Below, piece by piece: positions 1 through 51,251 of a DNA stretch of 64,000 bases. The translations under genes and the position numbers were made by a program. Where the stretch lies: the IMG/VR virus record IMGVR_UViG_3300045988_168118. One strand, written 5' to 3'. The notes beneath the pieces were generated by a model. The model did no database searches. It was not told the DNA's origin and saw only the letters and a program-made list of their open reading frames with translations. Position 1 is the stretch's first letter. The number at the start of each line of letters is the position of its first letter. The stretch is from a virus.

Positions 1-120
1 CAGCTCGATTTCATGGCTGAGAAAGTTAAGTGCTTCTTCTTTTGGTTCAAAGTCACTTTCTTCCAGAAAAGCTCTAATGGTTTCAAACCAATCTTTTTTT
101 GTCATTTTGTCTTTCATCAT
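1..120 (-). CDS. Early hypothetical protein, N-terminal part only (gene runs past the window start). Paralog of the 1389..1802 product.
   Basis: Minus-strand translation from ATG at 120 reads MKDKMTKKDWFETIRAFLEESDFEPKEEALNFLSHEIEL, similar to MTKKDFFKLLAGIVEKTEDFDKKTETLDFINHEIELL in 1389..1802. AGAGG lies 8 nt upstream and a consensus promoter sits at 155-183. Confidence 0.4.
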   Translation of the reverse strand, partial: MMKDKMTKKDWFETIRAFLEESDFEPKEEALNFLSHEIEL

Positions 121-154
121 ATTCATTACCTCTTTCTTTCTTTTGATATATTTA

Positions 155-183
155 TTATAGCATACTTTTTTGTTTTTGTCAAT
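155..183 (-). promoter_or_regulatory. Sigma-70-type promoter (TTGACA-17-TATAAT), first copy of a 75-nt duplicated promoter-leader cassette (127-200).
   Basis: On the minus strand, ttgaca at 183-178 and tataat at 160-155 with a 17-nt spacer. The cassette is near-identical to 409-483. Confidence 0.6.
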
Positions 184-213
184 TACTTTTTTATTTTTTT
201 TCTTTTCTGGTGC

Positions 214-402
214 TTACTTAATGTAAGCACCAGCAATAGACTTAACAGAGCCATCAGCATTGAAAAAGATAACATTATTCTGGATAACGTTAATACCTTT
301 ATTCTTTGCAAAATTTCTGAACACAAAGTCTGTATTCCAGAGTTTGATAAAATCAGCTTTTCTCATGCTTGCAAAACCTTTTGTGTAATTCATTGTTCTC
401 AT
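214..402 (-). CDS. Early hypothetical protein, 62 aa, MRTMNYTKGF...
   Basis: The ORF-track start at 492 lies upstream of the promoter. The usable start is ATG at 402, 9 nt after AGAGG and downstream of the 436-464 promoter. Confidence 0.45.
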   Translation of the reverse strand: MRTMNYTKGFASMRKADFIKLWNTDFVFRNFAKNKGINVIQNNVIFFNADGSVKSIAGAYIK

Positions 403-435
403 AGTCAATACCTCTTTCTTTCTTTTGATATATTT

Positions 436-464
436 ATTATAGCATACTTTTTTGCTTTTGTCAA
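436..464 (-). promoter_or_regulatory. Sigma-70-type promoter, second copy of the duplicated cassette (409-483).
   Basis: ttgaca at 464-459 and tataat at 441-436 on the minus strand, 17-nt spacer, followed by the leader gaaagaaagagg. Confidence 0.6.
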
Positions 465-749
465 TTACTTTTTTATTTTTTCTTGTTCCCACAAAACTAC
501 TTGAGTCATAAGCTTACCTTCTTCAATCCAGGCAAGAGAAAAGCTTACAATATTTGGTTGTTTTGGATTAAGATATTCAATAAAATCAATATCAAATTCA
601 AACTCCCATCCTTCTTTTTGATAGGATTCTAATAAATCATTAATAGCATTATAGCTATAATTATAGCTATAACTATCACTATTCCAAAAACCACCTTTTT
701 CTAAATCCGCTTCTAAGCGGTCTAAAATTTTTTCTAACATAAGTACCAC
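465..749 (-). CDS. Early hypothetical protein, 94 aa, acidic with YSYNYSYN.
   Basis: ORF with GGAAGGTGG RBS. Its own promoter is at 787-815. Confidence 0.5.
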   Translation of the reverse strand: MVLMLEKILDRLEADLEKGGFWNSDSYSYNYSYNAINDLLESYQKEGWEFEFDIDFIEYLNPKQPNIVSFSLAWIEEGKLMTQVVLWEQEKIKK

Positions 750-786
750 CTTCCTATTTCTTATTTCTTATTTATTTTATGTATAC

Positions 787-815
787 ATTATATCAAAAGA
801 AAAAATAAAAGTCAA
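787..815 (-). promoter_or_regulatory. Sigma-70-type promoter (TTGACT-17-TATAAT).
   Basis: Reverse complement of 787-815 reads ttgacttttattttttcttttgatataat. Confidence 0.5.
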
Positions 816-1006
816 TGGCATTTTACACAAAATATAATAAAATATTTTGTCTATTTTGACTATTGACAGGTTTAGCATTGTGCATAATAGAGAAAATTGG
901 CGGATTTTGATATAAAATTTTGTTCATTTTACCTATTGACAGAGATTTTTGTGCAAAACGGAGAATTTTGGGATAAAAAGTTTTTTATTTTTGTGCATTT
1001 TTTCTC

Positions 1007-1035
1007 TTGACAAAATCGTCAGCGTATGGTATAAT
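1007..1035 (+). promoter_or_regulatory. Plus-strand consensus promoter (TTGACA 1007-1012, TGgTATAAT 1027-1035), left half of face-to-face promoter unit A.
   Basis: 17-nt spacer and extended -10. Upstream tgtgcattttttctcttgacaaaat is identical to the upstream context of unit C at 4485-4509. No plus-strand gene lies downstream. Confidence 0.55.
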
Positions 1036-1044
1036 GGATATTTC

Positions 1045-1067
1045 GGTCGCCTTGATCCAAGGCGACC
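1045..1067. other. GC-rich hairpin ggtcgcc-ttgatccaa-ggcgacc centred between the two facing promoters of unit A.
   Basis: 7-bp perfect stem. Equivalent hairpins with different sequence but the same position occur in units B (4353-4375) and C (4533-4566). Confidence 0.55.
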
Positions 1068-1071
1068 CGCT

Positions 1072-1100
1072 ATTATACCACACTTTCGGGTGCTTGTCAA
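1072..1100 (-). promoter_or_regulatory. Minus-strand consensus promoter, right half of unit A.
   Basis: Reverse complement reads ttgacaagcacccgaaagtgtggtataat: -35 at 1100-1095, 17-nt spacer, extended -10 TGgTATAAT. Confidence 0.5.
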
Positions 1101-1290
1101 TAGGCAAAATAAACAAAATAAAAAATTTTTTGAGCCTTATTTTTGTTACATTTTCACAAAATTATAGACTGGGACTCTTTGTGCAACAATACCAAAATTA
1201 TAAAAATTTTTTGGCTATTTTTGTAATTTATGTGCATTGACTTTTTTGTTCTCTGGTATTTTTAAATAAAAAACATCCCTCCAGCAGCGG

Positions 1291-1328
1291 ATTTTTTGTG
1301 CAAAAAGTAGAAAAAAAATGCACAAAAA
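1291..1328. repeat. Inverted repeat TTTGTGCA-N20-TGCACAAA, operator-like.
   Basis: ttttttgtgcaaaaagtagaaaaaaaatgcacaaaaaagg. Half-sites recur throughout the islands at 890-1340, 4020-4660 and 7680-7930. Confidence 0.5.
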
Positions 1329-1339
1329 AGGAGGACGGA

Positions 1340-1375
1340 TTTTGTGTAATCCGCCCTCTTGACAAGGTTTATAAG
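1340..1375 (-). terminator. Weak hairpin (cggatt-ttgtgt-aatccg) then U-rich tract on the minus strand, downstream of gene 1389..1802.
   Basis: Minus strand reads cggattacacaaaatccg tcctcctttttt. Confidence 0.3.
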
Positions 1376-1388
1376 TTACTTTTTAGTT

Positions 1389-1802
1389 TTACTCTTCTTT
1401 CTCAGTTTCTTCTTCTTTTGCAAGAGAAAAGTAAGGAACTCTTTTTTCAACTGTCCTGACCACTTTGCCGGCTTCAATCATTTTTTTCAACAGTGCAGAC
1501 AACTTCTGAGAAGAAAGCTTACTCATTTCGGCGTTCTCTTTAATCATTGTAGTTACCGTGACAGGTTTACCAAACAGCTCTAAGGCAATTCCAATAAGTT
1601 CCATAAGCTCCTCATTTTCTTTAATGTGAGCTGTTTTCTTTTTGCCTGGTGCTGAAGATTTCTTATTTAACAGTTCAATCTCGTGATTGATAAAGTCAAG
1701 TGTTTCTGTTTTCTTGTCAAAATCTTCTGTTTTTTCTACGATACCTGCCAGCAGTTTAAAAAAGTCTTTTTTTGTCATTTTGTTTGTGTTTGTCATAATC
1801 AA
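1389..1802 (-). CDS. Early hypothetical protein, 137 aa, possible C-terminal winged-helix region. Paralog of the gene at the window start.
   Basis: ORF with AAAAGGGGAA RBS. Promoter at 1919-1947. A GC-rich leader hairpin gatggtc/gaccatc sits at 1855-1877. Confidence 0.5.
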   Translation of the reverse strand: MIMTNTNKMTKKDFFKLLAGIVEKTEDFDKKTETLDFINHEIELLNKKSSAPGKKKTAHIKENEELMELIGIALELFGKPVTVTTMIKENAEMSKLSSQKLSALLKKMIEAGKVVRTVEKRVPYFSLAKEEETEKEE

Positions 1803-1918
1803 ATTCCCCTTTTCTTTCTTTTAAAATTTTTTTGGTGGCTTGCGGTCGGTGGTCGATGGTCGATTTTGCTGACCATCCGAACCGCTGAAAATATTTTATT
1901 TATTGATTTGCTACAATG

Positions 1919-1947
1919 TTATTATACTACTTTTCTTTGCTATTGTC
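1919..1947 (-). promoter_or_regulatory. Sigma-70-type promoter (TTGACA-17-TATAAT).
   Basis: Reverse complement reads ttgacaatagcaaagaaaagtagtataat. Confidence 0.55.
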
Positions 1948-1957
1948 AAGCATTTTT

Positions 1958-2332
1958 TTATTTTTTCTTTTGTGGTCTATGTTTGATTAACGAAATTGAA
2001 TATTCCGCACCGCCAATTTTGAAAGTAATTTCTTTTTGCGGATTTGCGATTGTCACACTTTCAAAGTTCATTTCCTCAACTTCTTTCAAGTGACTTGCCA
2101 AAATTTCAATGATTTTGACTTTTTCCGCGTCCAATTTTACCTCACGTTTTTTCGTGCTTTTTTTCTCTGGTGTACTCTGAACATAGTTCTTAATGCCTTT
2201 AGCCTTAATTTCCATTTCCGCCATTTCAAGAGCTTCCTCTTTAGTTACCGGTTCTCCATCCGCTTCAAATTCTTTCATCAACTTAATAGCAAGCTTTTCG
2301 ATTGCATCTGCGGTCACTGTTGTTTTAGCCAT
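1958..2332 (-). CDS. Early hypothetical protein, 124 aa, Lys/Glu-rich.
   Basis: ORF. The 63-nt promoter-leader cassette lies upstream at 2358-2419. Confidence 0.5.
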   Translation of the reverse strand: MAKTTVTADAIEKLAIKLMKEFEADGEPVTKEEALEMAEMEIKAKGIKNYVQSTPEKKSTKKREVKLDAEKVKIIEILASHLKEVEEMNFESVTIANPQKEITFKIGGAEYSISLIKHRPQKKK

Positions 2333-2380
2333 GTTATATCACATCCTTTTTAAAATTTACTATTAACTTGTTACAATGGT

Positions 2381-2409
2381 ATTATATCGCATCTTAGCTT
2401 AAAAGTCAA
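2381..2409 (-). promoter_or_regulatory. Sigma-70-type promoter (TTGACT-17-TATAAT), copy 1 of a 63-nt exactly duplicated cassette (2358-2419 = 3149-3210).
   Basis: Placed by the 791-nt offset from the identical copy at 3172-3200. The conserved leader contains the palindrome TTGTAACAA. Confidence 0.55.
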
Positions 2410-3116
2410 GCACTTTCGTGTAATTCTTTTCTTTTTTTCTGCGGCAGTCTCCAACATGACGGCTTAATACTTCTATCCATTTTTTTATGCTGGTCAAAAC
2501 ATTTTTTCATAATTTCAATTTCAATTTTTACATCTTCTAAGCCTGTATGAGATTCTACAAAATCAATATTCTTTTTAATATATTTATAGCATACCTCAGC
2601 GTTAGTTAAAAGATTGCCTTTTTCAGACTCAAATCCGTTTTTCTCAGCAAATTTGATATAGGTGTTTGTACTTAAAATCATCTGACAAGCCATGTTCCAA
2701 ATACAAAAATATTCTGTACCATAAGGGAAAAACCAGCGAATAAAACTTTTGCTATGGTATCTAATAGCATTGTTTAATGCTTTTCTATCAAAATTCATAT
2801 TGTAAGCACCAACTTTTTTCACATTATATTCTCTCATGTCTGCAAACATCTGTTTTCTAATATTGAAAATGCTTTTCATGGTTCTTTTTCCGCTTTTTAA
2901 ATCATCCCAGTATTTCGGAATTTTTTCAGCGTAGTAGGCACTATTCATAGCTTCTTTCAAGTCAATAAATGTCTCAGCGACTACAAAGCTTCTTTCGGTG
3001 ACAATGTTACCGTGTCTATCTGCAATAGCATAGCCAATATCATAAGGGATTGGTTCATTTACACTATTCGCAGTTTCTGTATCCAATACCATGAAAAACT
3101 CTTTTCTTCTACTCAT
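2406..3116 (-). CDS. DEDDh-family 3'-5' exonuclease (DnaQ/epsilon, oligoribonuclease-like).
   Basis: Exo I motif VLDTETAN, Exo II GAYNMNFDRKAL and Exo III HTGLEDV are all present. The likely true start is ATG at 3116 (MSRRKEFF), 9 nt after GAGGA. The track start at 3131 is a TTG. Confidence 0.6.
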   Translation of the reverse strand: MSRRKEFFMVLDTETANSVNEPIPYDIGYAIADRHGNIVTERSFVVAETFIDLKEAMNSAYYAEKIPKYWDDLKSGKRTMKSIFNIRKQMFADMREYNVKKVGAYNMNFDRKALNNAIRYHSKSFIRWFFPYGTEYFCIWNMACQMILSTNTYIKFAEKNGFESEKGNLLTNAEVCYKYIKKNIDFVESHTGLEDVKIEIEIMKKCFDQHKKMDRSIKPSCWRLPQKKRKELHESA

Positions 3117-3171
3117 TTTTGATTTCCTCAACTTTCATTTATTTTTTTTACTATTAACTTGTTACAATGGT

Positions 3172-3200
3172 ATTATATCGCATCTTAGCTTAAAAGTCAA
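3172..3200 (-). promoter_or_regulatory. Sigma-70-type promoter, copy 2 of the 63-nt duplicated cassette.
   Basis: Reverse complement reads cttgacttttaagctaagatgcgatataat. Identical to the copy upstream of 1958..2332. Confidence 0.55.
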
Positions 3201-3210
3201 GCACTTTCGT

Positions 3211-3390
3211 TTATTTTTTAAAATCTTTTAACTGTTGGTTCGTAGACAACTCTTTAATTTTATATTTATGCAACCTATTGTTTAAACAATGAGTGCATGA
3301 ACCATGATTTCTGCATGACATTGACTTTGCTTTTGCTCTGCGGTATTCTTTTCTATGTTCTTTACCACTTCTGATTGCTTTATCCATCAT
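3211..3390 (-). CDS. Small basic Cys/His-rich protein, 59 aa (MMDKAIRSGKEHRKEYRRAKAKSMSCRNHGSCTHCLNNRLHKYKIKELSTNQQLKDFKK), possibly zinc-binding. Not in the ORF track because it is under 60 aa.
   Basis: Read manually from the minus strand. AGGTGA lies 8 nt upstream of ATG at 3390 and the stop TAA is at 3213-3211. Confidence 0.35.
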   Translation of the reverse strand: MMDKAIRSGKEHRKEYRRAKAKSMSCRNHGSCTHCLNNRLHKYKIKELSTNQQLKDFKK

Positions 3391-3407
3391 ATTCTATCAC
3401 CTACTTT

Positions 3408-3881
3408 CTATAAAAAATTTTTTAAGATTTCCATAATATTATTTACATCAAAAGCACCTTTTCCCCACTCGATTCGATTTTTTTCTTCATCATCAAAAAG
3501 CCACCCCTTGCAATCAACGACAGTACTTTTTGGTGTACCATAGTTTACAATTTTGATTTCATCCCATTTAATACTAGGTAAGTGTTTTTCAAGCCATGCA
3601 AGTTTTACACTTGTTACCGCCGTATTATAAGAAGCTGACCCGCTTTTACTTAACCAGCTTACAATACCAATTCTATAGCCATTAGCTTGTAACTTGTGAA
3701 GCACTCTTGCGAAAACTGAAAAATTAAAAAGTGGTTTTGCTACTTTGTATGGTGTAGTGTCTTCTTTTTCCAAATATGCTAACCAGTTTTCCACGCCGTA
3801 GAAGTTAGCAAGTGTGCCGTCCATGTCAAAATAAATAGTTCCCTTTGTGCTCATCATTTCTTTAATTGTATTATCCATCAT
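3408..3881 (-). CDS. HAD-superfamily 5'(3')-deoxyribonucleotidase-like protein (NT5C family).
   Basis: HAD motif I in YFDMDGTLANF, as in the cytosolic deoxyribonucleotidase VDMDGVLADF. The track start at 3893 is a TTG. The real start is probably the ATG-ATG at 3881/3878. Confidence 0.55.
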   Translation of the reverse strand: MMDNTIKEMMSTKGTIYFDMDGTLANFYGVENWLAYLEKEDTTPYKVAKPLFNFSVFARVLHKLQANGYRIGIVSWLSKSGSASYNTAVTSVKLAWLEKHLPSIKWDEIKIVNYGTPKSTVVDCKGWLFDDEEKNRIEWGKGAFDVNNIMEILKNFL

Positions 3882-3993
3882 AATAATTATCAATCCTTTC
3901 TTTTTTGATTATCGCAAGTGCCTTGCGACCGACCGCTCATTATGTAAGCTTTGCTTTATTTCTGATTTAAGTTTAATGTCCTTTGACAAGTAT

Positions 3994-4022
3994 ATATTAC
4001 TACATCTTAGCGAAAAAGTCAA
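3994..4022 (-). promoter_or_regulatory. Probable promoter (TTGACT-17-TAATAT) for 3408..3881, with leader hairpin cgcaag-gca-cttgcg at about 3925-3945.
   Basis: Reverse complement reads ttgactttttcgctaagatgtagtaatat. Confidence 0.4.
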
Positions 4023-4319
4023 ATTTATTTTTTATTGTGCAAAAGTGATGAAATTTTATATAAAAATCATAGTATTTTTGTCAAAATATACAAATGTAGA
4101 AAAATAATGCGGATTTAGGCGGATTCTTGTGCATTTTGCTACCTTAAATATCACATATTGTGTTTCTGCGTGTCAAAAAAGGTATGATTTTTTATTAAAA
4201 TTTCGTCACTTTGCACAAGGTGTAGAAAATTTTGGTATTATTTTATTAAATTTTGTGCATTTTGTATACCATGTCAAAAAATGGGATTTTTTTAATTTAT
4301 TTTTTGTGCAAATTGCCTA

Positions 4320-4348
4320 TTGACAAAAAGGTGCTAGATGTGGTATAA
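4320..4348 (+). promoter_or_regulatory. Plus-strand consensus promoter, left half of unit B.
   Basis: gcctattgaca-aaaaggtgctagatgtgg-tataat: -35 at 4320-4325, -10 at 4343-4348, extended TGg. Preceded by ttttgtgcaaattgcctattgaca. Confidence 0.55.
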
Positions 4349-4394
4349 TAAAATTTCGGGGTGCCCCGACCCCGAACGGACTTTGCCCTCTTTC

Positions 4395-4423
4395 ATTATA
4401 ACATACTCGAGCCACCTTGTCAA
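4395..4423 (-). promoter_or_regulatory. Minus-strand consensus promoter, right half of unit B.
   Basis: Reverse complement reads ttgacaaggtggctcgagtatgttataat (TGtTATAAT). It is followed on the minus strand by gaaagaggg and then the hairpin at 4353-4375 (ttcgggg..ccccgaa). Confidence 0.5.
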
Positions 4424-4501
4424 GAGTTTTTTTCAAAAAAAATGCACAAATTTTGGGATAAAAATTTTGAAAAATTTGTGCATTTTTTCTCTTGACAAAA
4501 T

Positions 4502-4530
4502 GTCTCAACTATGTTATAATGGAAGGCTCG
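4502..4530 (+). promoter_or_regulatory. Plus-strand consensus promoter, left half of unit C.
   Basis: ttgacaaaatgtctcaactatgttataat. Its upstream 25 nt are identical to unit A. Confidence 0.55.
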
Positions 4531-4568
4531 GCTCGCATTGACTGCTCGCGAGCCGGCTATTATAACAC

Positions 4569-4597
4569 ATTTTCCGCGACTTGTCAACCCCTTTTTA
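4569..4597 (-). promoter_or_regulatory. Minus-strand consensus promoter, right half of unit C.
   Basis: Reverse complement reads ttgacaagtcgcggaaaatgtgttataat. The hairpin ggctcgc-attgactgctc-gcgagcc (4533-4566) abuts both -10 elements. Confidence 0.5.
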
Positions 4598-4663
4598 AAA
4601 AATTTTTTATTTTCGTCATTTTGCACAAAAATAAAATTCAGCATTTTGCACAAAAAACAAAAG

Positions 4664-4700
4664 TCTAATTTACTTAGACTTTTGTTATAAAAATTTTTTC
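4664..4700. terminator. Bidirectional rho-independent terminator (caaaagtcta-atttact-tagacttttg with U-runs on both strands).
   Basis: 10-bp stem. It ends the plus-strand transcript from the unit C promoter, roughly 190 nt with no ATG, and the minus-strand gene 4751..4903. Confidence 0.55.
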
Positions 4701-4750
4701 TGCTTATGACTAGTTATTTTCATTATTTATTATTAAATTCACGTGATTTC

Positions 4751-4903
4751 TTATTTTTTTCGTTTCATTATTGCTTCATAAGCAATTTTTACTATTTCTT
4801 TTGAAATGTTTTGATTCTCTGCTATTTTACAGAATATAATTACTGTGTCATTTTCAAATCCTTTTACTTGAATCATTTTATCCATCATCTCTGTCCTTGT
4901 CAT
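4751..4903 (-). CDS. Small early protein, 50 aa (MTRTEMMDKMIQVKGFENDTVIIFCKIAENQNISKEIVKIAYEAIMKRKK). Not in the ORF track.
   Basis: Consensus promoter 4926-4954 and RBS AGAGAGG upstream of ATG at 4903. Confidence 0.35.
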   Translation of the reverse strand: MTRTEMMDKMIQVKGFENDTVIIFCKIAENQNISKEIVKIAYEAIMKRKK

Positions 4904-4925
4904 TATTGTTTTCCTCTCTTTCTTT

Positions 4926-4954
4926 AACTGTCTTTATTATATCACAAGAAGCTG
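4926..4954 (-). promoter_or_regulatory. Sigma-70-type promoter with conserved AAAGAGAGG leader.
   Basis: Reverse complement reads ttgacaaaatcagcttcttgtgatataat. Confidence 0.55.
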
Positions 4955-4971
4955 ATTTTGTCAACCCCTTT

Positions 4972-5205
4972 TTATAAAATTCCTTCAATTTTACAACATC
5001 TTCTGCAAGCATTAATACAATCATTCCATGCGTCATCATCATTTGCGTACTGCGTCAAGATTCTCTCATCCCACCCATCTTCTAACCCACAAGTAAACCA
5101 AACGTCAATGACAATGTCTTCGCTAATATTTTCTCTGATAAAAACATCCATCTGTCTAAGAAGATTCTTTCTAATTCTAACTATCTCTTTTCTTGATACG
5201 CTCAT
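4972..5205 (-). CDS. Early Cys-rich small protein, 77 aa (MSVSRKEIVRIRKNLLRQMDVFIRENISEDIV...CINACRRCCKIEGIL). Paralog of 5222..5509.
   Basis: The start is reassigned to ATG at 5205, after promoter 5236-5264 and RBS AGAGAGG. The track extends it upstream to 5346 through the promoter. Confidence 0.5.
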   Translation of the reverse strand: MSVSRKEIVRIRKNLLRQMDVFIRENISEDIVIDVWFTCGLEDGWDERILTQYANDDDAWNDCINACRRCCKIEGIL

Positions 5206-5221
5206 TTTATTTACCTCTCTT

Positions 5222-5509
5222 TCATTTGATACATTTATTATACCATATTTCCGACTTTTTGTCAACCCCTTTTTTAAAAAAATCAATTCCTTCAATTTCA
5301 AAACATTTGCGATAAGCGTTAATACAATTACACCAAGAATCATCATCGCTTACACACTTTGTTAGAATATCATCATTCCATCCATCTTTAAACAGGGGAA
5401 GCCAAACATTAGTTATTACGTCTTCACTAATGTATTTTCTGATGAATGAATTCATTCGTCTGAGATAATACTTTTTAATTTCAATTATTTCATCTCTTGA
5501 AAACTCCAT
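5222..5509 (-). CDS. Early Cys-rich small protein, 95 aa. Paralog of 4972..5205. Its C-terminus reads through the next promoter.
   Basis: ISEDVITNVWLPLFKDGWNDDILTKCVSDDDSWCNCINAYRKCFEIEG aligns with ISEDIVIDVWFTCGLEDGWDERILTQYANDDDAWNDCINACRRCCKIEG. Promoter 5537-5565. Confidence 0.5.
   Translation of the reverse strand: MEFSRDEIIEIKKYYLRRMNSFIRKYISEDVITNVWLPLFKDGWNDDILTKCVSDDDSWCNCINAYRKCFEIEGIDFFKKGVDKKSEIWYNKCIK
5236..5264 (-). promoter_or_regulatory. Sigma-70-type promoter followed by the ATCAAATGAAAGAGAGG leader.
   Basis: Reverse complement reads ttgacaaaaagtcggaaatatggtataat. Confidence 0.55.
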
Positions 5510-5536
5510 TTTTCCTCTCTTTCATTTGATATATTT

Positions 5537-5565
5537 ATTATACTATAGGTCTTGACTTTTGTCAA
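5537..5565 (-). promoter_or_regulatory. Sigma-70-type promoter whose -35 lies in a perfect palindrome ggtcttgac-tttt-gtcaagacc (5546-5567).
   Basis: Reverse complement reads ttgacaaaagtcaagacctatagtataat, followed by the atcaaatgaaagagagg leader. Confidence 0.55.
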
Positions 5566-5584
5566 GACCTATTTTAAATTAGTT

Positions 5585-5746
5585 TTAAAGAAGTTTTTGA
5601 AGTTTGCCGTCAGCATCAAATTGAAAGCCAATGTTTTCACCATAAGAAGAAAGCTCAGCTTCAAAATAATCCTTTTCCTCATAGCAAATCTCTATGTCGG
5701 CTTTTTTAAAAATCTGTAATAAAATTTCTTTATCTGTTTTTTTCAT
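5585..5746 (-). CDS. Small early protein, 53 aa (MKKTDKEILLQIFKKADIEICYEEKDYFEAELSSYGENIGFQFDADGKLQKLL). Not in the ORF track.
   Basis: Promoter 5783-5811 (TTGACA-17-TATACT) and RBS AAGAGG before ATG at 5746. Confidence 0.3.
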   Translation of the reverse strand: MKKTDKEILLQIFKKADIEICYEEKDYFEAELSSYGENIGFQFDADGKLQKLL

Positions 5747-5782
5747 TTTTATCAACCTCTTTCTCTTTCATTTGATATATTA

Positions 5783-5811
5783 AGTATAGCAGATATTTTT
5801 TATTTTGTCAA
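5783..5811 (-). promoter_or_regulatory. Sigma-70-type promoter (TTGACA-17-TATACT) with ATCAAATGAAAGAGAAAGAGG leader.
   Basis: Reverse complement of 5783-5811. Confidence 0.45.
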
Positions 5812-5873
5812 GCCTTTTTTAAAAAAAGGAAGATTTTTTATCTTCCTTTTTTCCCCATAACTCCATCTTGTTT

Positions 5874-6035
5874 TTATCTCAGTAATCTTAATAAATAGTT
5901 ATTTTCATGCTCTTTCAAAAAAGCGTTAATTTCTTCTATTGTTTCAGCGTAAATCTCGCCTGTCTCAGTGTCTACCAACATCAATTTTTTACTTCCTAAA
6001 AATAATCCTAAATCTAACATATTTAAGCCCTCCAT
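5874..6035 (-). CDS. Tiny ORF, about 53 aa (MEGLNMLDLGLFLGSKKLMLVDTETGEIYAETIEEINAFLKEHENNYLLRLLR), translationally coupled to the ORF upstream of it.
   Basis: TAATG stop/start overlap at 6033-6037. An internal ATG at 6020 is preceded by GGAGGG. Confidence 0.25.
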   Translation of the reverse strand: MEGLNMLDLGLFLGSKKLMLVDTETGEIYAETIEEINAFLKEHENNYLLRLLR

Positions 6036-6154
6036 TAAGAAATTTTTACCAGATAACCGTTTGTATTTTTTTCTACTGAAAAAATGTATTGATTATCTTT
6101 TAAGTATTTTTTTACAGTTTCAAATGCTTTTCGAGTTGTCAGTAACATTGTCAT
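6035..6154 (-). CDS. Tiny ORF, 39 aa (MTMLLTTRKAFETVKKYLKDNQYIFSVEKNTNGYLVKIS).
   Basis: Promoter 6187-6215 (TTGACA-17-TATCAT) and RBS GAGAGG before ATG at 6154. Confidence 0.25.
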   Translation of the reverse strand: MTMLLTTRKAFETVKKYLKDNQYIFSVEKNTNGYLVKIS

Positions 6155-6186
6155 ATTTCTTTACCTCTCTTTCATTTGATAATACT

Positions 6187-6215
6187 ATGATACTATATTT
6201 CCTTGCTTTTGTCAA
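6187..6215 (-). promoter_or_regulatory. Sigma-70-type promoter with ATCAAATGAAAGAGAGG leader.
   Basis: Reverse complement reads ttgacaaaagcaaggaaatatagtatcat. Confidence 0.45.
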
Positions 6216-6264
6216 GCATTTTAGGAAAATTTCTAAAGATTTTTTTATGCGGATTTCCACTGAA

Positions 6265-6330
6265 AAAACCTGAACTTAAGGAGATTGTAGGTGAACCGAC
6301 TCCAAAACTGTCAAGTTCGGGAGTCCCTTT
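6265..6330. terminator. Compound Y-shaped hairpin (cctgaactt...aagttcggg enclosing ggag/ctcc) with U-runs on both strands. Bidirectional terminator or insulator between early transcription units.
   Basis: 9-bp outer stem with one G-U pair, then gggagtcccttttttattt on the plus strand and ttttttcag on the minus strand. Confidence 0.4.
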
Positions 6331-6600
6331 TTTATTTAAGGAATGATTCTAAAGCCTTATAGCATAAATCAGCGTTTTCTTTATCTTTTATGCTAGTACC
6401 TTTAGAAAAGTCATTCATAGCGGCTGTTAGTAATTCCGGCACTGAAATAAATTCAAATACCAGTTGTAAAGCCGCCAATTCATTAAGATTGACTTTTTTT
6501 CATCGGTTCTTTCCTATCTCCTTTTTAAATATTTTATTTTCTTTACATTATTATTATATCAAATTTTTTAATAAAATTCAAAAAAGATACTTTATCTAAA

Positions 6601-6640
6601 TAAGCAAAGAAAAGGGCTGAACCTATTCCGCCCTTTTCCC
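6601..6640. terminator. Rho-independent terminator for the minus-strand gene 6650..6913 (agggc-N12-gccct, U-runs on both sides).
   Basis: Minus strand reads agggcggaataggttcagccct tttctttgcttattt. Confidence 0.45.
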
Positions 6641-6649
6641 GCTTTTCCG

Positions 6650-6913
6650 CTATCCTATTATCTCTGCATCTGTAATAATATCATCTGTCACACTATCAGT
6701 CCCTAAAGAATCCATGTATAATTTAACTTTATCTCTTGCTTTAAAACCGTCCCCGTAGAAACTCCATACATGCCCGTAGCTATCCATAACAACCACTTCA
6801 TTATTAAAAGAGCTAATCACTTTAGCTTCTCTTGTATACTTAGTAAAGCTACCAAAACCGCAAATACTACTTAAAGTTGCACTTACTATTAATCCTAAAA
6901 TCACCTTTTTCAT
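6650..6913 (-). CDS. Small secreted or lipoprotein-like early protein, 87 aa from MKKVILGLIVSATLSSICG.
   Basis: N-terminal signal-peptide-like hydrophobic stretch ending in Cys. The start is reassigned to ATG at 6913, because the track start is a TTG. Probably co-transcribed with 6919..7197. Confidence 0.45.
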   Translation of the reverse strand: MKKVILGLIVSATLSSICGFGSFTKYTREAKVISSFNNEVVVMDSYGHVWSFYGDGFKARDKVKLYMDSLGTDSVTDDIITDAEIIG

Positions 6914-6918
6914 TATGT

Positions 6919-7197
6919 CTAACTCCAACCTCTTTCTTTCTTAATCTTTTCGTATCTTCTTTTTTCTTCTTCTTCAATCTTCTTTTTGTCGTATACTCTA
7001 ACTTTCATTCTAGTATATCCGTCTCTTTTTAAACACCAACGTTCTGTTTTACGTTGTATTACTATCTTGTCGATAGCCCTTTGCTGTACCTCTTGCTTAT
7101 GAGTGTTATAATATTTGATACTCTCAATTTCTAATAAAGTACTTATTGGTCTGTACTTATTTGTTACACTAAACAAAGTGCATTGAATTGTTATCAT
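6919..7197 (-). CDS. Early hypothetical basic protein, 92 aa, with KKKIEEEEKRRYEKIKKERGW C-terminus.
   Basis: ORF with RBS AAAGAGAGGTGA. Promoter 7223-7251. Confidence 0.45.
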   Translation of the reverse strand: MITIQCTLFSVTNKYRPISTLLEIESIKYYNTHKQEVQQRAIDKIVIQRKTERWCLKRDGYTRMKVRVYDKKKIEEEEKRRYEKIKKERGWS

Positions 7198-7222
7198 CTT
7201 ATCACCTCTCTTTTCAAGTATT

Positions 7223-7251
7223 ATTATACTACCTTATTATACCATTGTCAA
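7223..7251 (-). promoter_or_regulatory. Sigma-70-type promoter (TTGACA-17-TATAAT).
   Basis: Reverse complement reads ttgacaatggtataataaggtagtataat. Confidence 0.5.
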
Positions 7252-7262
7252 GCTTTATTTAC

Positions 7263-7640
7263 AGTATTTTTATTTATTTTAATGCATATTTACTCATGTT
7301 ATTAAGATTAATAGTTAGTTTTAAATATATATATTTATATCTTTTTTATAAATAGTAAAATAAAATATAATATAAATATTATCATACTATTTTATTTAGT
7401 ATTATTTTATAAGCTTATTATTATTATTATTATACTATCTTATTATAATTATTATAAGATATTACAGTACCAATGTTAACATTATTATCATTATATTTCT
7501 TCTTTATATATAGTTATAATTGATAAGATTAACAATAATATAAGATAATGTTATTGTTAATTATATTTATGTATTGTATTGTTATAATATTGTATTATTA
7601 TTATTATTATTATTATCTTTCTTTTGTCTTAAGCTTAACC
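7263..7640. repeat. A/T-only tract of about 380 bp and roughly 10% GC, with (ATT)n/(TTA)n microsatellites at 7417-7434 and 7596-7618 and short TATA/ATAAT repeats. No ORF.
   Basis: Seen directly. Stop codons are frequent in all frames. Confidence 0.7.
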
Positions 7641-7679
7641 TCTCATTATAGCACCTTTAGCTCATTCTGTCAATAGACA

Positions 7680-7935
7680 TTTTACACAATTTTTCCTTTA
7701 AAACTTTGTGCAGATTGCCTATTGACATTTTTTGTCTATTGACATTTTACACAAAAATGAGAATATATTTTTGTACACTTTTACTATTGACAGGGTTTGT
7801 CAATAGACATAATGCACAAAATTTTCCACGTATTTTTGTACAATTTTACCTATTGACAAGTTCATTTTAGGAAAATATCTTTGTGCATTTTTTACAAAAA
7901 TTTAGCCAAAAATTTGTGCATTTTGCCTATTGACA
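7680..7935. promoter_or_regulatory. Cluster of at least 6 copies of the 9-10-mer (C/T)CTATTGACA(G/A) in both orientations, interleaved with TTGTGCA/TGCACAA half-sites. Includes the palindrome ctattgacagggtttgtcaatag. Iteron-like or operator array.
   Basis: Copies at about 7727, 7745, 7786, 7800 (reverse), 7850 and 7922. Most lack a good -10 at 17 nt, so they are unlikely all to be promoters. The triple composite tttgtgcaNNttgcctattgaca occurs at 4300, 7717 and 7910. Confidence 0.5.
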
Positions 7936-8451
7936 GGCTTCTCGGAGCGTTGCGAAAGTGTACGCTCCGACGATAGATGGCAAGCTACCAATAGCCAATA
8001 AAAATTCTAATCTTCTTGCTTTATTTTAGTTATTTAAAGAATTTATTTTATTAGTTTAACTCTTTCTCCTCTTTGCTTAAAATAATGTGTTCAAAACTCT
8101 TCTGAACAAAAAGCATATCCTCTTTGGAAAATGATTTGAAAAATTATTTGTTAGGCGGTGTCTTGTTGCTTCTTGCTCAAAAGAGATGCTCAAACTACAG
8201 ACCATACTTAAACATAATGCCGGGGTATATTAAAGGATTAAAATTTTTTACTTTTATAAAAAGATAGTGTTCTCCACAATTCTCTCTCCAAAAATTTTTT
8301 CAAATCTAAAAGTCTAAAAATAAAATCAAAAAACGAGAATTAAAAATCTCTCCAAAAAATTTTTTTAAACAAATTAAAATAAAATAAAATAAAGAGGATT
8401 TTAAAAAAATAAAAATATTTCTCATTTTCTCTTTAAAAACTACCCGCGATA

Positions 8452-9204
8452 TCAAACAAGGCTCCGAAAAGCGTCTAAATTAGATCCATTAGGGATAGCA
8501 AAAATTATTTTTTTAAAAATATAATTATTAGATAATTTCATAAATATCTTTTTAACTTCATTAGGATCTTGACCAAAAGCTCCGCATCCAAAAGCTCCTA
8601 AGATTAGAACATCAATTTTATTTTTCGCCGCAATGTCTAAAATAAAAGAGATTCTTTCTTTTAAAGCCTTAGTATTTTCTTCATCTGTTATCCCATTACG
8701 CTTAGCTTCTTTTTTATTCGGGGCTGCACAAGTAATAATATCACAATTATAAAAATCTTCAAAAAGAATGTTTGGACTATAAATCGCTCTATTCCAATAC
8801 AAACCGCGATTTATTAAGTTTTTATTTTCTCCATAAAAATCTTCTCTTTGCCGCCACAAAATATTATAAAGAATAGACTTATGACATAAGCTTCCTTCTT
8901 GAGTACTACTTCCTTTTAAAAAGCCTCCGCCAGGATATTTAAAAGATGCAAAATTAAGTGCGGCAATCTTACTATCAGGAAATTCAGATACAGCTTTTTT
9001 AATAGCATTAACAGTATCAGTTTCCCATATTTCATAATTAAGATTTTTTTCATTTATTTTCTTCATTTTATTTGCAATAGAACCTGGCACAAAACCACTA
9101 TAATATTTAGTTCTTGCGTTACACCATGCGATTTTATCTGAATATTCTTTTTCCATTTTATAAAAATGATTTATGGCTTGAATAGCTCTTTCTTTTTTAT
9201 TCAT
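8452..9204 (-). CDS. Bacterial-type poly(ADP-ribose) glycohydrolase / macrodomain hydrolase (DUF2263, TIGR02452 family).
   Basis: PARG signature NFASFKYPGGGFLKGSSTQEGSLCHKSILY (GGG-X7-QE) plus the diphosphate loop GAFGCGAFGQDP. It closely mirrors the NFANPxxPGGGFLxGAxAQEExLCRxSxLY and GAWGCGVFGN motifs of bacterial PARGs. The second catalytic Glu is replaced, giving QEG rather than QEE. Confidence 0.65.
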   Translation of the reverse strand: MNKKERAIQAINHFYKMEKEYSDKIAWCNARTKYYSGFVPGSIANKMKKINEKNLNYEIWETDTVNAIKKAVSEFPDSKIAALNFASFKYPGGGFLKGSSTQEGSLCHKSILYNILWRQREDFYGENKNLINRGLYWNRAIYSPNILFEDFYNCDIITCAAPNKKEAKRNGITDEENTKALKERISFILDIAAKNKIDVLILGAFGCGAFGQDPNEVKKIFMKLSNNYIFKKIIFAIPNGSNLDAFRSLV

Positions 9205-9224
9205 CTATTAACATCCTCGTTTTA

Positions 9225-9413
9225 TTAGAACATCGCATTTGCTTGTTCATAATATTTTAATTCTTGAATCCAAGCGATTGGAATTACCATTTCCGCTTTA
9301 GCATATCTTTCTATAGCATCCATAATCTCATTTCTTCTACTATTAATTACTTCTAATCTAAAAGCTTCACGCGGAACCAAACCTGCAACTGTCTTTTTTG
9401 CTTCATTATTCAT
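9225..9413 (-). CDS. Hypothetical protein, 62 aa.
   Basis: ORF packed tightly between the PARG-like and DUF2493 genes, with 2-nt and 20-nt gaps. Confidence 0.4.
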   Translation of the reverse strand: MNNEAKKTVAGLVPREAFRLEVINSRRNEIMDAIERYAKAEMVIPIAWIQELKYYEQANAMF

Positions 9414-9414
9414 A

Positions 9415-9762
9415 TTATTTTCCTCCTATTTTAATTACTTTACCATGCTTTCCATTCATTTTCATTTTCATAATAATTTTTCTAATTATTGCATCTTTTC
9501 CGTCATAAAAAAATATACCAAAATCAATATTTTCTACCATTTTCTGAATTAATTTATCTATGTTGCGATCAAATACATATTCAATAGGAGCACCATTATT
9601 TTCTGCCCATATTTTTCCAATAGACTCCGAGAGCTTCTTCTCCGTATTCCCGCAAACAACAGTAAATAAATAACATTGCGTTTCGCGGATAAAATCTTCC
9701 ATAGTTGCGGAGACTAGGCGATTATCTGCGAAACCGCGACTTCCAAGAATACTAATTTTCAT
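9415..9762 (-). CDS. DUF2493 / SLOG-superfamily (DprA/LOG-like Rossmann) protein.
   Basis: ILGSRGF...VVCGNTEKKLSESIGKIWAENNGAPIEYVF...FFYDGKDAIIRKIIMKMKMNGKHGKVIKI matches the DUF2493 pattern vtGsRdf...vhGgarGaD...waae.gvp.e.f...fwdGkSrGTkhmielakk.gkpv.vi. RBS AAGAGGAAAAAG. Confidence 0.5.
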   Translation of the reverse strand: MKISILGSRGFADNRLVSATMEDFIRETQCYLFTVVCGNTEKKLSESIGKIWAENNGAPIEYVFDRNIDKLIQKMVENIDFGIFFYDGKDAIIRKIIMKMKMNGKHGKVIKIGGK

Positions 9763-9843
9763 TTCTTTTTCCTCTTGTTTTATTTATAAAATAATTATAA
9801 CAAAAATTTTTTAAAAAATCCAATTAAAGTGCTTTAATCAAAT

Positions 9844-9872
9844 TTGACAAAAAAATTTTTTTGTGGTATAAT
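9844..9872 (+). promoter_or_regulatory. Consensus promoter (TTGACA-17-TGgTATAAT) for the plus-strand morphogenesis block. It diverges from the minus-strand promoter of the SLOG-PARG operon, TGtTATAAT at about 9795-9803.
   Basis: tttgacaaaaaaatttttttgtggtataat, 27 nt upstream of RBS AAGGAG and the ATG at 9900. Confidence 0.6.
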
Positions 9873-9899: not shown

Positions 9900-11063
9900 A
9901 TGACACCAATAACATTAGAAGATAAGGCTTTTGAGGAGAATAATGTTTTAGAAGAAGAAAAAAAAATAACAGAAAAACAAATCGAAGAAGAAAATATGCA
10001 AACTACTATTAAACTAGATTATTCTTTAGAAACTCCTGAAGAGCGGAATGAATTAGTTAAAAAAATTATAGATAAGACTCCTTCTGAGCAATTAACACCT
10101 AAATATTTAGAAATATTATCAGATTACATTATTTTTGCTATGGATAAACAAGAGCGGAAACAGAAGCAAATATTAACTGATAATCATATGGTCACAGTTA
10201 ATAAAAGAGAAACTTCTTTTGAAGGATTAGTTGGTCGCTTAGAGAATGGCGAAGATGGCATTTATAATATGATCGCCAATGATAAGAATATTATTTTTAC
10301 ACCTAAATTTCAAATAACTCAACAGGATATTGCGGAAATCCCTGAGTTAAAGCAACTTGTAGACGCGATTGCGGAAGTCGAAAAAGCTGAGAAAAAAGCA
10401 GTTGGTAAAAAGAAATTTTTATTAAAAAAGCAACTTATTGCTATGAGACAAGATCAATATGTAATTAGAAGTGCATACAAGCCGCCAATTTATTGTATGA
10501 ACGCAATTAAAAGTTTTAGCAAAATTGATTTTGATGAAAATGTTTCTATTAGCGGAAATGATGAAATTGAAGATAATAGCTTAGTTTCTTTTTTTAATCC
10601 TAAGCACATATCTGCATTATTATGTAACTATTCCCGCCTAAAAGAAGATGCATGGGGAAAATTCTACAGTGATTCATATTTTTTAATGGAGGATTTAGAT
10701 ACATTAATAGAGAAGACTCTAAGAGATAGTTATCCAATGTATTATGACCTCTTGATTTATAAAATAGACGGAAAACAAAATCTTGAAATTCAGAGTCTGT
10801 TGAATCAAAAACACAATGTAAAACATTCAGTGGAATATATATCATCTTTATGGCGGAATAAAATACCTAAGCTATTGTCAGAGCAAGCTCAGGAAGACTA
10901 TTTAATTTGGTATTACACAACTCAGAAAAAAGGAAAATGGAAAAAATGTTCCCGTTGTGGGGAAATCAAATTAGCTCATAATAAATTTTTTTCAAAGAAT
11001 AAGACAAGTAAAGATCATTTTTACAGTATATGTAAATGTTGTCGAAATAAGAAAAATAAATAA
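9900..11063 (+). CDS. Hypothetical protein, 387 aa, with C-terminal C4 zinc ribbon (CSRCGEIK...CKCC).
   Basis: ORF with RBS AGGAG. First gene of the late block. No family recognised. Confidence 0.55.
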   Translation: MTPITLEDKAFEENNVLEEEKKITEKQIEEENMQTTIKLDYSLETPEERNELVKKIIDKTPSEQLTPKYLEILSDYIIFAMDKQERKQKQILTDNHMVTVNKRETSFEGLVGRLENGEDGIYNMIANDKNIIFTPKFQITQQDIAEIPELKQLVDAIAEVEKAEKKAVGKKKFLLKKQLIAMRQDQYVIRSAYKPPIYCMNAIKSFSKIDFDENVSISGNDEIEDNSLVSFFNPKHISALLCNYSRLKEDAWGKFYSDSYFLMEDLDTLIEKTLRDSYPMYYDLLIYKIDGKQNLEIQSLLNQKHNVKHSVEYISSLWRNKIPKLLSEQAQEDYLIWYYTTQKKGKWKKCSRCGEIKLAHNKFFSKNKTSKDHFYSICKCCRNKKNK

Positions 11064-51097: not shown

Positions 51098-51251
51098 TTT
51101 ATACAGAATTTTATACGTGCTTTTTATTTTCTTACTTTAGGAGCCAAATTTACTTTTTAAATAAATTTTAATGAAAATTTCGGGCAAAGTATAAAATTTA
51201 TTACCAGTCATTTTTCATATACCATTGCAAGGGAAAGGAGTGAAAAGTAAA

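Follow-up and report, generated by a model that had tools for sequence, protein, structure and literature searches.

Convergent consensus promoters facing each other across GC-rich hairpins in the early-type region of a gut phage: putative counter-transcription modules from a wider non-coding cassette family

Promoters facing each other at close range are known from IS10/Tn10, in which pIN and pOUT lie tens of base pairs apart, their products (RNA-IN and RNA-OUT) overlap by about 25–36 nt at the 5' ends and one of the two is a stable stem-loop RNA. A short RNA directed against an early operon is typified by lambda OOP, which is about 77 nt long, is made from a constitutive promoter and ends at a hairpin terminator; it overlaps the 3' coding end of cII and acts via RNase III. 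Stem-loops at the 5' end, as in the ermC and SP82 leaders and the T7 phi10 leader, protect coding mRNAs, and in Bacillus subtilis such stabilisers need no more than 4 unpaired 5' nucleotides. The convergent promoters pR and pL of coliphage 186 and PR and PRE of lambda are of unequal strength, lie 62–320 bp apart and each drive a coding operon (PMC5001618). Here we analyse three promoter-hairpin units, termed A, B and C, in a viral stretch of 64,000 nucleotides (IMG/VR record IMGVR_UViG_3300045988_168118; the whole stretch is called the window), with emphasis on units B and C and the segment 4320–4700 in which they lie.

With reference to Table 1, unit B occupies 4320–4423, as the initial annotation had placed it, and consists of two promoters matching the consensus hexamers at 12 of 12 positions on either side of a GC-rich hairpin. 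Unit C, assigned there to 4502–4597, spans 4492–4587, i.e. 10 nt further to the left, and the gap between B and C measures 68 bp rather than 80 bp. The units had been described as bidirectional; each does hold two promoters on opposite strands, but these are convergent (face-to-face) and not divergent. B(+), B(-), C(+) and C(-) all carry hexamers 17 or 18 bp apart together with a TG, and are predicted as sigma-70/sigma-A promoters. Between the -10 boxes lies a GC-rich, hairpin-forming inner segment of 36 (A), 45 (B) or 38 nt (C); the hairpin of unit A folds at -23.4 kcal/mol (z = -3.4 and -3.2) and the B stem at -13.6 to -16 kcal/mol. Facing perfect promoter pairs 30–50 bp apart are represented in the window by units A and C against 0.00 expected from 100 dinucleotide-preserving shuffles, a pattern that missed unit B solely through its 18-nt spacer. 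The sequence upstream of C is common to A over 53 nt at 89% identity (4449–4501 and 964–1016), and B(+) shares GCCTATTGACA in its -35 context with A(-), which bears out the view of the units as assembled from two recurring promoter flavours. A recent inverted duplication was considered as the source of the facing promoters and rejected, since the spacers and upstream contexts within a unit are unrelated. Read leftward, the units come immediately after terminators that close leftward operons (4686–4656 and 1362–1330).

Table 1. Coordinates of the promoter-hairpin units and associated features in the window
Feature	Position	Strand	Description
Unit A	1007..1100		TTGACA-17-TATAAT GGATA TTTCGG TCGCCTTG-ATCC-AAGGCGA CCCGCT ATTATA-17-TGTCAA
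TTGTGCA/TGCACAA array	4035..4311		boxes at 4035+, 4127+, 4212-, 4253+, 4304+
Promoter B(+)	4320..4349	+	TTGACA-18-TGGTATAAT, TTTTGTGCAAATTGCCTA upstream; 12/12, TG extended -10
B start motif	4354-4359		sequence TTTCGG
B hairpin	4355-4376		TTCGGGG-TGCCCCGA-CCCCGAA; on the minus strand followed by AUUUUAUUAU, terminator-like
Promoter B(-), facing B(+)	4395..4423	-	TTGACA-17-TATAAT; 12/12, TG extended -10
Spacer between back-to-back B(-) and C(+)	4424..4491		inverted box pair TGCACAAATTT (4443-) and AAATTTGTGCA (4476+)
Promoter C(+)	4492..4520	+	TTGACA-17-TGTTATAAT, TTTGTGCATTTTTTCTC upstream, A(+) flavour; 12/12, TG
C inner quasi-palindrome	4525..4554		GGCTCG GCTCGC ATTGACT GCTCGC GAGCC; fold -18.4 kcal/mol, z = -2.8
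C(+) transcript (predicted)	4526..4695	+	about 165 nt; two CATTTTGCACAAAAA boxes (4617-4631, 4642-4656)
Promoter C(-), facing C(+)	4559..4587	-	AAAAAGGGG upstream, early-gene-promoter flavour; 12/12, TG
A/T-flanked 13-bp hairpin	4656..4686		fold z = -4.98; terminator of leftward gene 4751-4903

When set beside the described systems, the units resemble IS10 in their close facing promoters and in transcripts predicted to overlap at their 5' ends, by about 26–32 nt given -10 boxes 38–45 bp apart. They differ from it in that both promoters of a unit are maximal, that the overlap is exactly one palindromic hairpin so that both RNAs would fold, that neither a ribosome-binding site nor a start codon lies in the overlap, and that they stand in a phage early region in 2–4 copies, with the opposing promoter absent in most relatives. 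With the 186 and lambda switches they share convergent phage promoters, to which the same interference routes would apply, and the nearby boxes could bind a biasing factor. Unlike those switches, the units are equal in strength on paper, their spacing excludes co-occupancy and at least one of their transcripts is non-coding; nor does each promoter drive a coding operon as in 186, the rightward RNAs being non-coding and the leftward ones meeting a terminator-like hairpin. The likeness to OOP consists in a short, hairpin-terminated RNA set against an early operon, whereas C(+) and the relatives of terminator type overlap only the shared terminator. As in 5' stabilisers, the GC hairpin would lie 0–3 nt from the predicted 5' end, which would agree with the placement needed in B. 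subtilis, yet most cassettes have no downstream gene. Similarly, a strong constitutive promoter and a short terminated RNA recall lambda pR'-6S-tR', from which the units differ in that no same-direction downstream operon, Q-binding element or pause element was identified for them.

The feature is real, non-random and conserved, and its function is what we infer. The reading we favour, at a probability of roughly 0.4, is that the units are cis-acting counter-transcription modules, which would oppose or partition leftward early transcription and release short self-folded RNAs. B and C would be tandem face-to-face copies of a conserved phage "strong-start" cassette, in which each promoter appears maximal and of the host sigma-A type and the transcript would start at the base of the shared GC hairpin (Y-1/R+1, at TTTC/GG or its counterpart, the slash marking the step). 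Both RNAs of a unit would then have a fully paired 5' end, a structure that resists 5'-end-dependent decay in Firmicutes. The footprint of RNA polymerase extends from about -55 to +20 and, with the -10 boxes 38–45 bp apart, two polymerases could therefore not occupy a unit simultaneously, while any escaping polymerase would have to traverse the opposing promoter. Sitting in intergenic gaps of leftward early operons, the modules would fire against early genes, and the opposition could proceed by promoter competition or occlusion, by head-on collision or by pairing of the complementary 5' hairpins. Their outputs would be short folded non-coding RNAs, about 45 nt long from B(-) and about 165 nt from C(+), and the arrays of TGCACAA and CTATTGACA boxes are the likely sites at which a protein would set the balance. 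Interference between convergent promoters by occlusion, "sitting duck" removal and collision is established (PMC5001618).

The rightward transcript of unit C had been proposed as an RNA of roughly 190 nt without ATG, running over about 4509–4700. Its start, near 4526, and its end are predicted from the geometry of promoter and terminator, which gives a length of about 165 nt; an ATG is present at 4511–4513, inside the promoter, whereas from 4526 to 4700 neither ATG nor GTG occurs, and inspection of open reading frames (ORFs) yielded no credible ORF starts in units B or C. The two direct repeats reported for this transcript were found again as ATTTTGCACAAAAA copies at 4612–4661. The bidirectional terminator placed at 4664–4700 is in fact a 13-pair hairpin at 4656–4686, which the terminator scan calls on the minus strand only; on the plus strand it is weaker, with the T-run partly within the stem. 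Rightward termination at this hairpin, which would end both the B(+) and the C(+) RNA, is plausible.

On the minus strand, sequences with the properties of intrinsic terminators lie at 4686..4656 and 4376..4355. Transcription from B(-) would accordingly be expected to cease at the B hairpin with its U-run after about 45 nt, and that from C(-) at the same hairpin after about 205 nt. B(-) and C(-) had been taken to read through a 400-nt leader into gene 3408–3881; the resemblance of the B hairpin plus AUUUUAUUAU to a leftward terminator makes this doubtful, and the two promoters may not reach that gene. In this arrangement 4320–4700 would be a self-contained non-coding module with a terminator on each side, and the B(+) and C(-) RNAs would be complementary over about 195 nt.

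Relatives were gathered as loci anchored on the phage sigma factor. The segment proved to be conserved: 3882–4700 is almost 100% identical in two phages (L001 and L006) that are about 97% identical to the window overall. Units A, B and C are intact in both, the sequence of promoter B(+) is unchanged and the 820-bp intergenic region is essentially invariant, the inner part of unit C excepted. There, the 30-nt segment 4525–4554 is exactly inverted in L006, and L001 has lost 13 nt between the two GCTCGC repeats, a repeat-mediated deletion; both the inverted and the shortened segment still form hairpins, and about 640 bp around them are identical in the window, L001 and L006. The inner segment of C thus reads as a hairpin-associated rearrangement hot spot, and its tolerance of an inversion and of a 13-nt deletion indicates that structure and spacing matter, not sequence. 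The region of unit A is only about 95% identical across these relatives, and the near-identity of 3882–4700 reflects either strong constraint or recent recombinational exchange of the module.

Facing perfect promoters around a GC hairpin are also found in phages with 48–60% sigma identity and in the human-gut phage phAss-1, which holds two facing units. At 10699–10805 of phAss-1 (L201, OQ749652) the coding sequence WIC39738.1 starts 16 nt before the facing unit and runs through it; either this start or the gene call as such may be mistaken. Other relatives have the rightward promoter alone, behind which come the hairpin, an A-rich linker and a terminator that also serves a convergent gene (that of an NT5C-like enzyme in L003), with a predicted RNA of about 55–80 nt. 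The start motif TATAAT-N0-5-TTTCGG is common to the rightward promoters of the sigma-anchored loci, and all 22 of their 22 elements lie on the sigma-gene strand, opposed to the early genes.

The wider family was collected from IMG/VR and GTDB genomes with the pattern TTGACA-N15-TGNTATAAT-N0-6-TTTCGG. In IMG/VR, 82 viral stretches were matched, mostly contigs of 80–200 kb; in GTDB, about 20 phage-like contigs binned in metagenome-assembled genomes of Clostridia, Oscillospiraceae, Ruminococcus or Bacilli were matched besides ordinary bacterial promoters. The 101 distinct family elements so obtained belong to large Clostridia-type gut and rumen phages, phAss-1 included. Across them a TTTGTGCA box stands at -50 or -60 and CTC or CTA precedes the -35 box, and the start motif falls into two spacing classes, both of which set the C/G pyrimidine-purine step at the usual start distance. 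GC content reaches 68% in the first 32 transcribed nucleotides, while the downstream sequence has 34% and the upstream sequence 24%. In 61 elements, as compared to 24.9 expected by shuffles, a hairpin of at least 7 bp starts within 6 nt of TTTCGG, and the hairpin starts 1–6 nt into TTTCGG in 79 of the 101, initiation at the C/G step itself being predicted.

The sequence after the hairpin is unconserved across the family, the predicted product is often merely 35–80 nt long and at least 35 of 99 elements have a strict terminator no more than 160 nt on. What the family keeps is the promoter, the TTTC/GG start and the 5' GC hairpin, and the RNA of about 190 nt does not hold up as a conserved entity. 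Of the suggestion that it is a small non-coding RNA or a decoy/operator transcript, the part that stands is a non-coding C(+) RNA that would end at a shared terminator; its body is not a conserved unit. An opposing promoter 28–44 nt after TTTCGG was present in 16 of the 99 elements (9 with no mismatch, 6 with one), all of which had been chosen by the TTTCGG-side promoter alone, the opposing promoter not being a criterion. A plausible same-strand ORF follows the hairpin in about 10% of elements, and in 40 of 57 the ORF next downstream lies on the other strand.

An independent scan for facing perfect pairs returned at least 119 viral stretches with 79 distinct pairs, about 21 of them of the GC-hairpin type. 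The latter carry the two upstream flavours of unit A, and in 17 of the roughly 21 the inner length is 36–39 nt (mode 38); a 38-nt inner segment sets both predicted starts at the feet of the hairpin. More than 50 other distinct facing perfect pairs (IMG/VR L203–L312) have AT-rich inner segments, are unrelated and often lie on smaller viral contigs, and facing consensus promoters seem to be a phage theme wider than this family.

A covariance model of 30 canonical hairpins matched unit A with 22.1 bits (E = 5e-5) as the sole strong match in the window. All four family features (TGTGCA box, consensus promoter, TTTC/GG and GC hairpin) are present in A and B, and unit C carries GGAAGGCTCGG in place of TTTCGG; by its model score A is a canonical family member, and B and C, beyond the reach of the model, are divergent members. 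At 7927–7975 a CCTATTGACA box is followed after 5 nt by a hairpin TCTCGGAGCG...CGCTCCGACGA with no -10 box (8.7 bits in the family model), which looks like a decayed or truncated unit, and an 11-mer at 51174 was examined and dismissed as a unit. In 12–13 of the 101 elements, palindromes of the clostridial Rex type (TTGTTAA-N4-TTAACAA, up to 2 mismatches) lie 20–50 nt past the hairpin; they occur in L027, L031, L037, L042, L049, L062, L067, L081, L084 and L098, with none near the units of the window, and suggest that in one lineage read-through is under the control of a host repressor.

Several points weigh against counter-transcription in cis. Promoter use, transcript starts and transcript ends are all predictions from sequence, as are the stability of the RNAs, the interference and the part played by the boxes. 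The cassette of most relatives is without an opposing promoter and simply ends at a terminator, so that face-to-face interference cannot be the core role of the family. With about 10% of the cassettes preceding a same-strand ORF, they may amount to no more than a general strong-start module, while the early genes have perfect promoters of their own near their start codons. Around 40% of the family is without a clean hairpin of at least 7 bp, and the stem covariation observed in a 30-member alignment (6 of 8 pairs changed on both sides, score 0.405 against 0.184 shuffled) comes from members pre-selected for stems, which makes its pairing percentage circular. The near-identity of 3882–4700 could likewise stem from recent recombination and not from constraint.

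Conservation of the promoter and of the hairpin structure, but not of the RNA body, argues against a sequence-specific base-pairing small RNA, and leaves a decoy or a cis-acting counter-transcript as the live options. The inner sequences of A, B and C have no complementary or identical stretch of at least 10 nt elsewhere in the 64 kb, which together with the unconserved RNA body makes a cis or structural role likelier than pairing in trans. That the RNA product itself matters is unlikely in our estimation: very stable, sequence-degenerate 5'-triphosphate hairpins, along with the duplex of about 195 bp formed by B(+) and C(-) RNAs, would act in trans as decoys or sponges of a host protein recognising RNA that is structured or double-stranded, e.g. 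RNase III, RNase J or an RNA-sensing defence system. Maximal promoters giving transcripts with little beyond a 5' hairpin and a 3' terminator would suit such a role, as would a hairpin whose sequence varies freely while its structure is kept, the hairpin-only minimal products of B(-) and of phAss-1 position 129145, and the presence of 2–4 copies per genome in many phages. On the other hand, neither a protein partner nor a conserved motif in loop or tail was found (only 5 of 79 elements have a GCCA-type tail), the strong hairpin is missing from about 40% of elements, and action in trans would need neither the strict orientation against neighbouring genes nor the placement at operon boundaries. 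The further proposal that the cassettes are a new class of phage counter-defence or host-takeover RNA is improbable; they would flood the cell with sequence-degenerate 5'-triphosphate hairpins and, out of tandem facing units like B–C, perfect double-stranded RNA that saturate or mislead a host enzyme or sensor of such RNA, the facing geometry making both strands of the hairpin.

Known RNA identities were also considered for these hairpins. Mimicry of a tRNA acceptor was rejected, the GCCA tail occurring in only 5 of 79 elements and units A–C having GCTA; so was mimicry of a CRISPR repeat (an RNA anti-CRISPR), as on inspection the hairpin sequences differ within one phage and between phages, and a type I toxin-antitoxin pair, as the product of the convergent gene 4751–4903 is hydrophilic and 50 aa long. 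Rfam 15 gave no match in the window at gathering thresholds and, over 700–8100 at permissive E-values, only chance-level matches; an ARAGORN scan found no tRNA or tmRNA. A scan of the first 50 kb of a cultured relative, Enterococcus phage EF1, revealed no promoter followed by a GC-rich start, and blastn of the region against deposited phages returned only a weak, irrelevant match to Enterococcus siphoviruses. Literature searches on phAss-1 and on face-to-face or convergent phage promoters yielded no description of these elements, and the cassettes apparently constitute a widespread, undescribed family of short, non-coding elements.

Somewhat less likely than trans-acting decoys is a generic strong-start module free of any interplay, in which promoter, G start and 5' hairpin boost initiation and protect the 5' end, the facing layout merely shares one hairpin, A(-), B(-) and C(-) are extra promoters of the leftward operons and the rightward RNAs are by-products. 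In its favour, same-strand ORFs stand behind about 10% of cassettes, e.g. in L064 and L069/L077, which have a second hairpin and, behind it, a ribosome-binding site and a start codon; Rex-like operator boxes lie past the hairpin in one lineage; and whichever gap class the start motif belongs to, the hairpin begins at the predicted first base, as would suit a 5' stabiliser. However, 70% of the cassettes face an opposite-strand ORF and at least one third terminate within 160 nt, so that mostly there is nothing to stabilise. The B hairpin with its U-run should in addition halt B(-) and C(-) short of gene 3408–3881, and it is the rightward, gene-less promoter that is conserved while the gene-ward one is optional.

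The sites at which a protein could act on counter-transcription modules are arranged in arrays. The region is dense in TGTGCA sites, as first noticed, with 9 of the 33 boxes of the window clustering at 4035–4647, and two further clusters lie at 878–1319 and 7706–7914. A 42-nt imperfect inverted repeat (4042–4083 and 4171–4212) stands between B(+) and a weak leftward promoter at 4022–3994. An extremely AT-rich tract of 370 bp, within 7270–7940 and with (TTA)n runs at 7410–7440 and 7594–7620, adjoins the third array only; beyond it lie five repeats of about 58 nt (CATTTTACACAAAA ... TTTGTGCA-N6-CCTATTGACAGG), and a perfect palindrome CTATTGACA-GGGTT-TGTCAATAG lies at 7784–7806. The region 7270–7940 is near the strand and GC-skew switch at about 9.8 kb and looks like an origin or an operator array.

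By analogy with T4 oriF/oriG, lambda ori and ColE1, the units may be thought of as replication-origin modules, a view we consider improbable, in which the box arrays (WWWWTGCACAAA, CTATTGACA) would be initiator-binding iterons and the promoters would supply transcriptional activation, a GC-rich primer RNA or an R-loop. Three repeated-box arrays within otherwise gene-dense DNA, the third of which (7675–7940) adjoins the 370-bp (TTA)n tract near the switch at about 9.8 kb, are compatible with it, and a GC-rich initial transcript would give a stable RNA-DNA hybrid. A subset of the boxes is one mismatch away from a DnaA box (consensus TTATNCACA; variants TTTTGCACA or TTTTACACA), and 10 of the 114 such sites of the window fall inside the three arrays. 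Yet 114 sites against 93 +/- 9 expected is a weak enrichment, the flanks of the invariant core TGCACAA do not match TTAT, and GC skew merely follows gene orientation. The transcribed GC island is palindromic and not G-skewed, which speaks for an RNA hairpin over an R-loop; moreover, throughout the family the TGTGCA box keeps a fixed promoter position (-50 or -60), like an upstream promoter element, and most members have a single box instead of an array.

A loading site for processive antitermination (nut-, put- or Q-like), where hairpin-modified polymerase would later read through to the sigma and structural genes, is very improbable: the promoter-hairpin-terminator order does mirror lambda pR'-6S RNA-tR' and all elements point toward the sigma and late genes, but polymerase reading through would have to traverse 5–9 kb in which the early genes lie antisense, the sigma gene is preceded by a perfect promoter of its own (9844–9872), no boxA/boxB or put-like two-hairpin structure was seen, the hairpin sequence is unconserved and facing promoters would be senseless in such a role.

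The window has a GC content of 30.7% and encodes a phage sigma factor (9900–11063), terminase-like and portal proteins, a PolC-like polymerase, NrdD and a 2842-aa protein of tape-measure size. The closest deposited relatives of its portal protein are from an unannotated human faecal phage contig (76%) and from phAss-1 (39%), the latter belonging to a TAG-recoding (code-15) group with predicted infection of Clostridia (PMC10607447). Positions 1–9800 form an early-looking region of small leftward genes, nearly each of which is preceded by its own perfect TTGACA-17-TATAAT promoter; 15 of the 18 perfect promoters in the window lie within the first 10 kb, and seven 12/12 promoters are packed into 3.5 kb. 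GC skew tracks gene orientation, and both strand and skew switch at about 9.8 kb.

Within this region, a 73-nt promoter/leader is duplicated (2356–2428 and 3147–3219, 96% identity) upstream of two different leftward genes, a cassette of promoter and ribosome-binding site recurs at intervals of about 250–400 nt over 4905–6229, and the small genes 4972–5205 and 5222–5509 are paralogous (109 nt at 71%). The early genes 2406–3131, 3408–3881 and 1389–1796 adjoin units in 73, 62 and 46 related loci, respectively; the first product has DEDDh-exonuclease-like motifs, the second is an NT5C-like nucleotidase and the third is 135 aa long. The last, whose C-terminus resembles a winged helix, is a candidate box-binding regulator, put forward without a supporting database match; Pfam, PHROGs and PDB sequence searches of the neighbouring early proteins turned up no identifiable regulator, the nucleotidase and the exonuclease-like protein being the sole matches.

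Overall, if the units act as cis-acting counter-transcription modules, they would represent a portable genetic punctuation of about 100 bp, which recruits host polymerase maximally, yields an inert folded RNA and opposes incoming transcription. This would explain how many independently promoted early genes are held as separate transcription units in large gut and rumen Firmicute phages. The combination of TTTGTGCA box, perfect promoter, TTTC/GG and GC hairpin would then show, in uncultured phage contigs, where the early region lies and which polarity it has, and the cassettes could be engineering parts for Clostridia, as very strong promoters, 5' stabilisers and possible insulators. Should the RNAs instead prove to be decoys, they would amount to a new anti-host RNA strategy.

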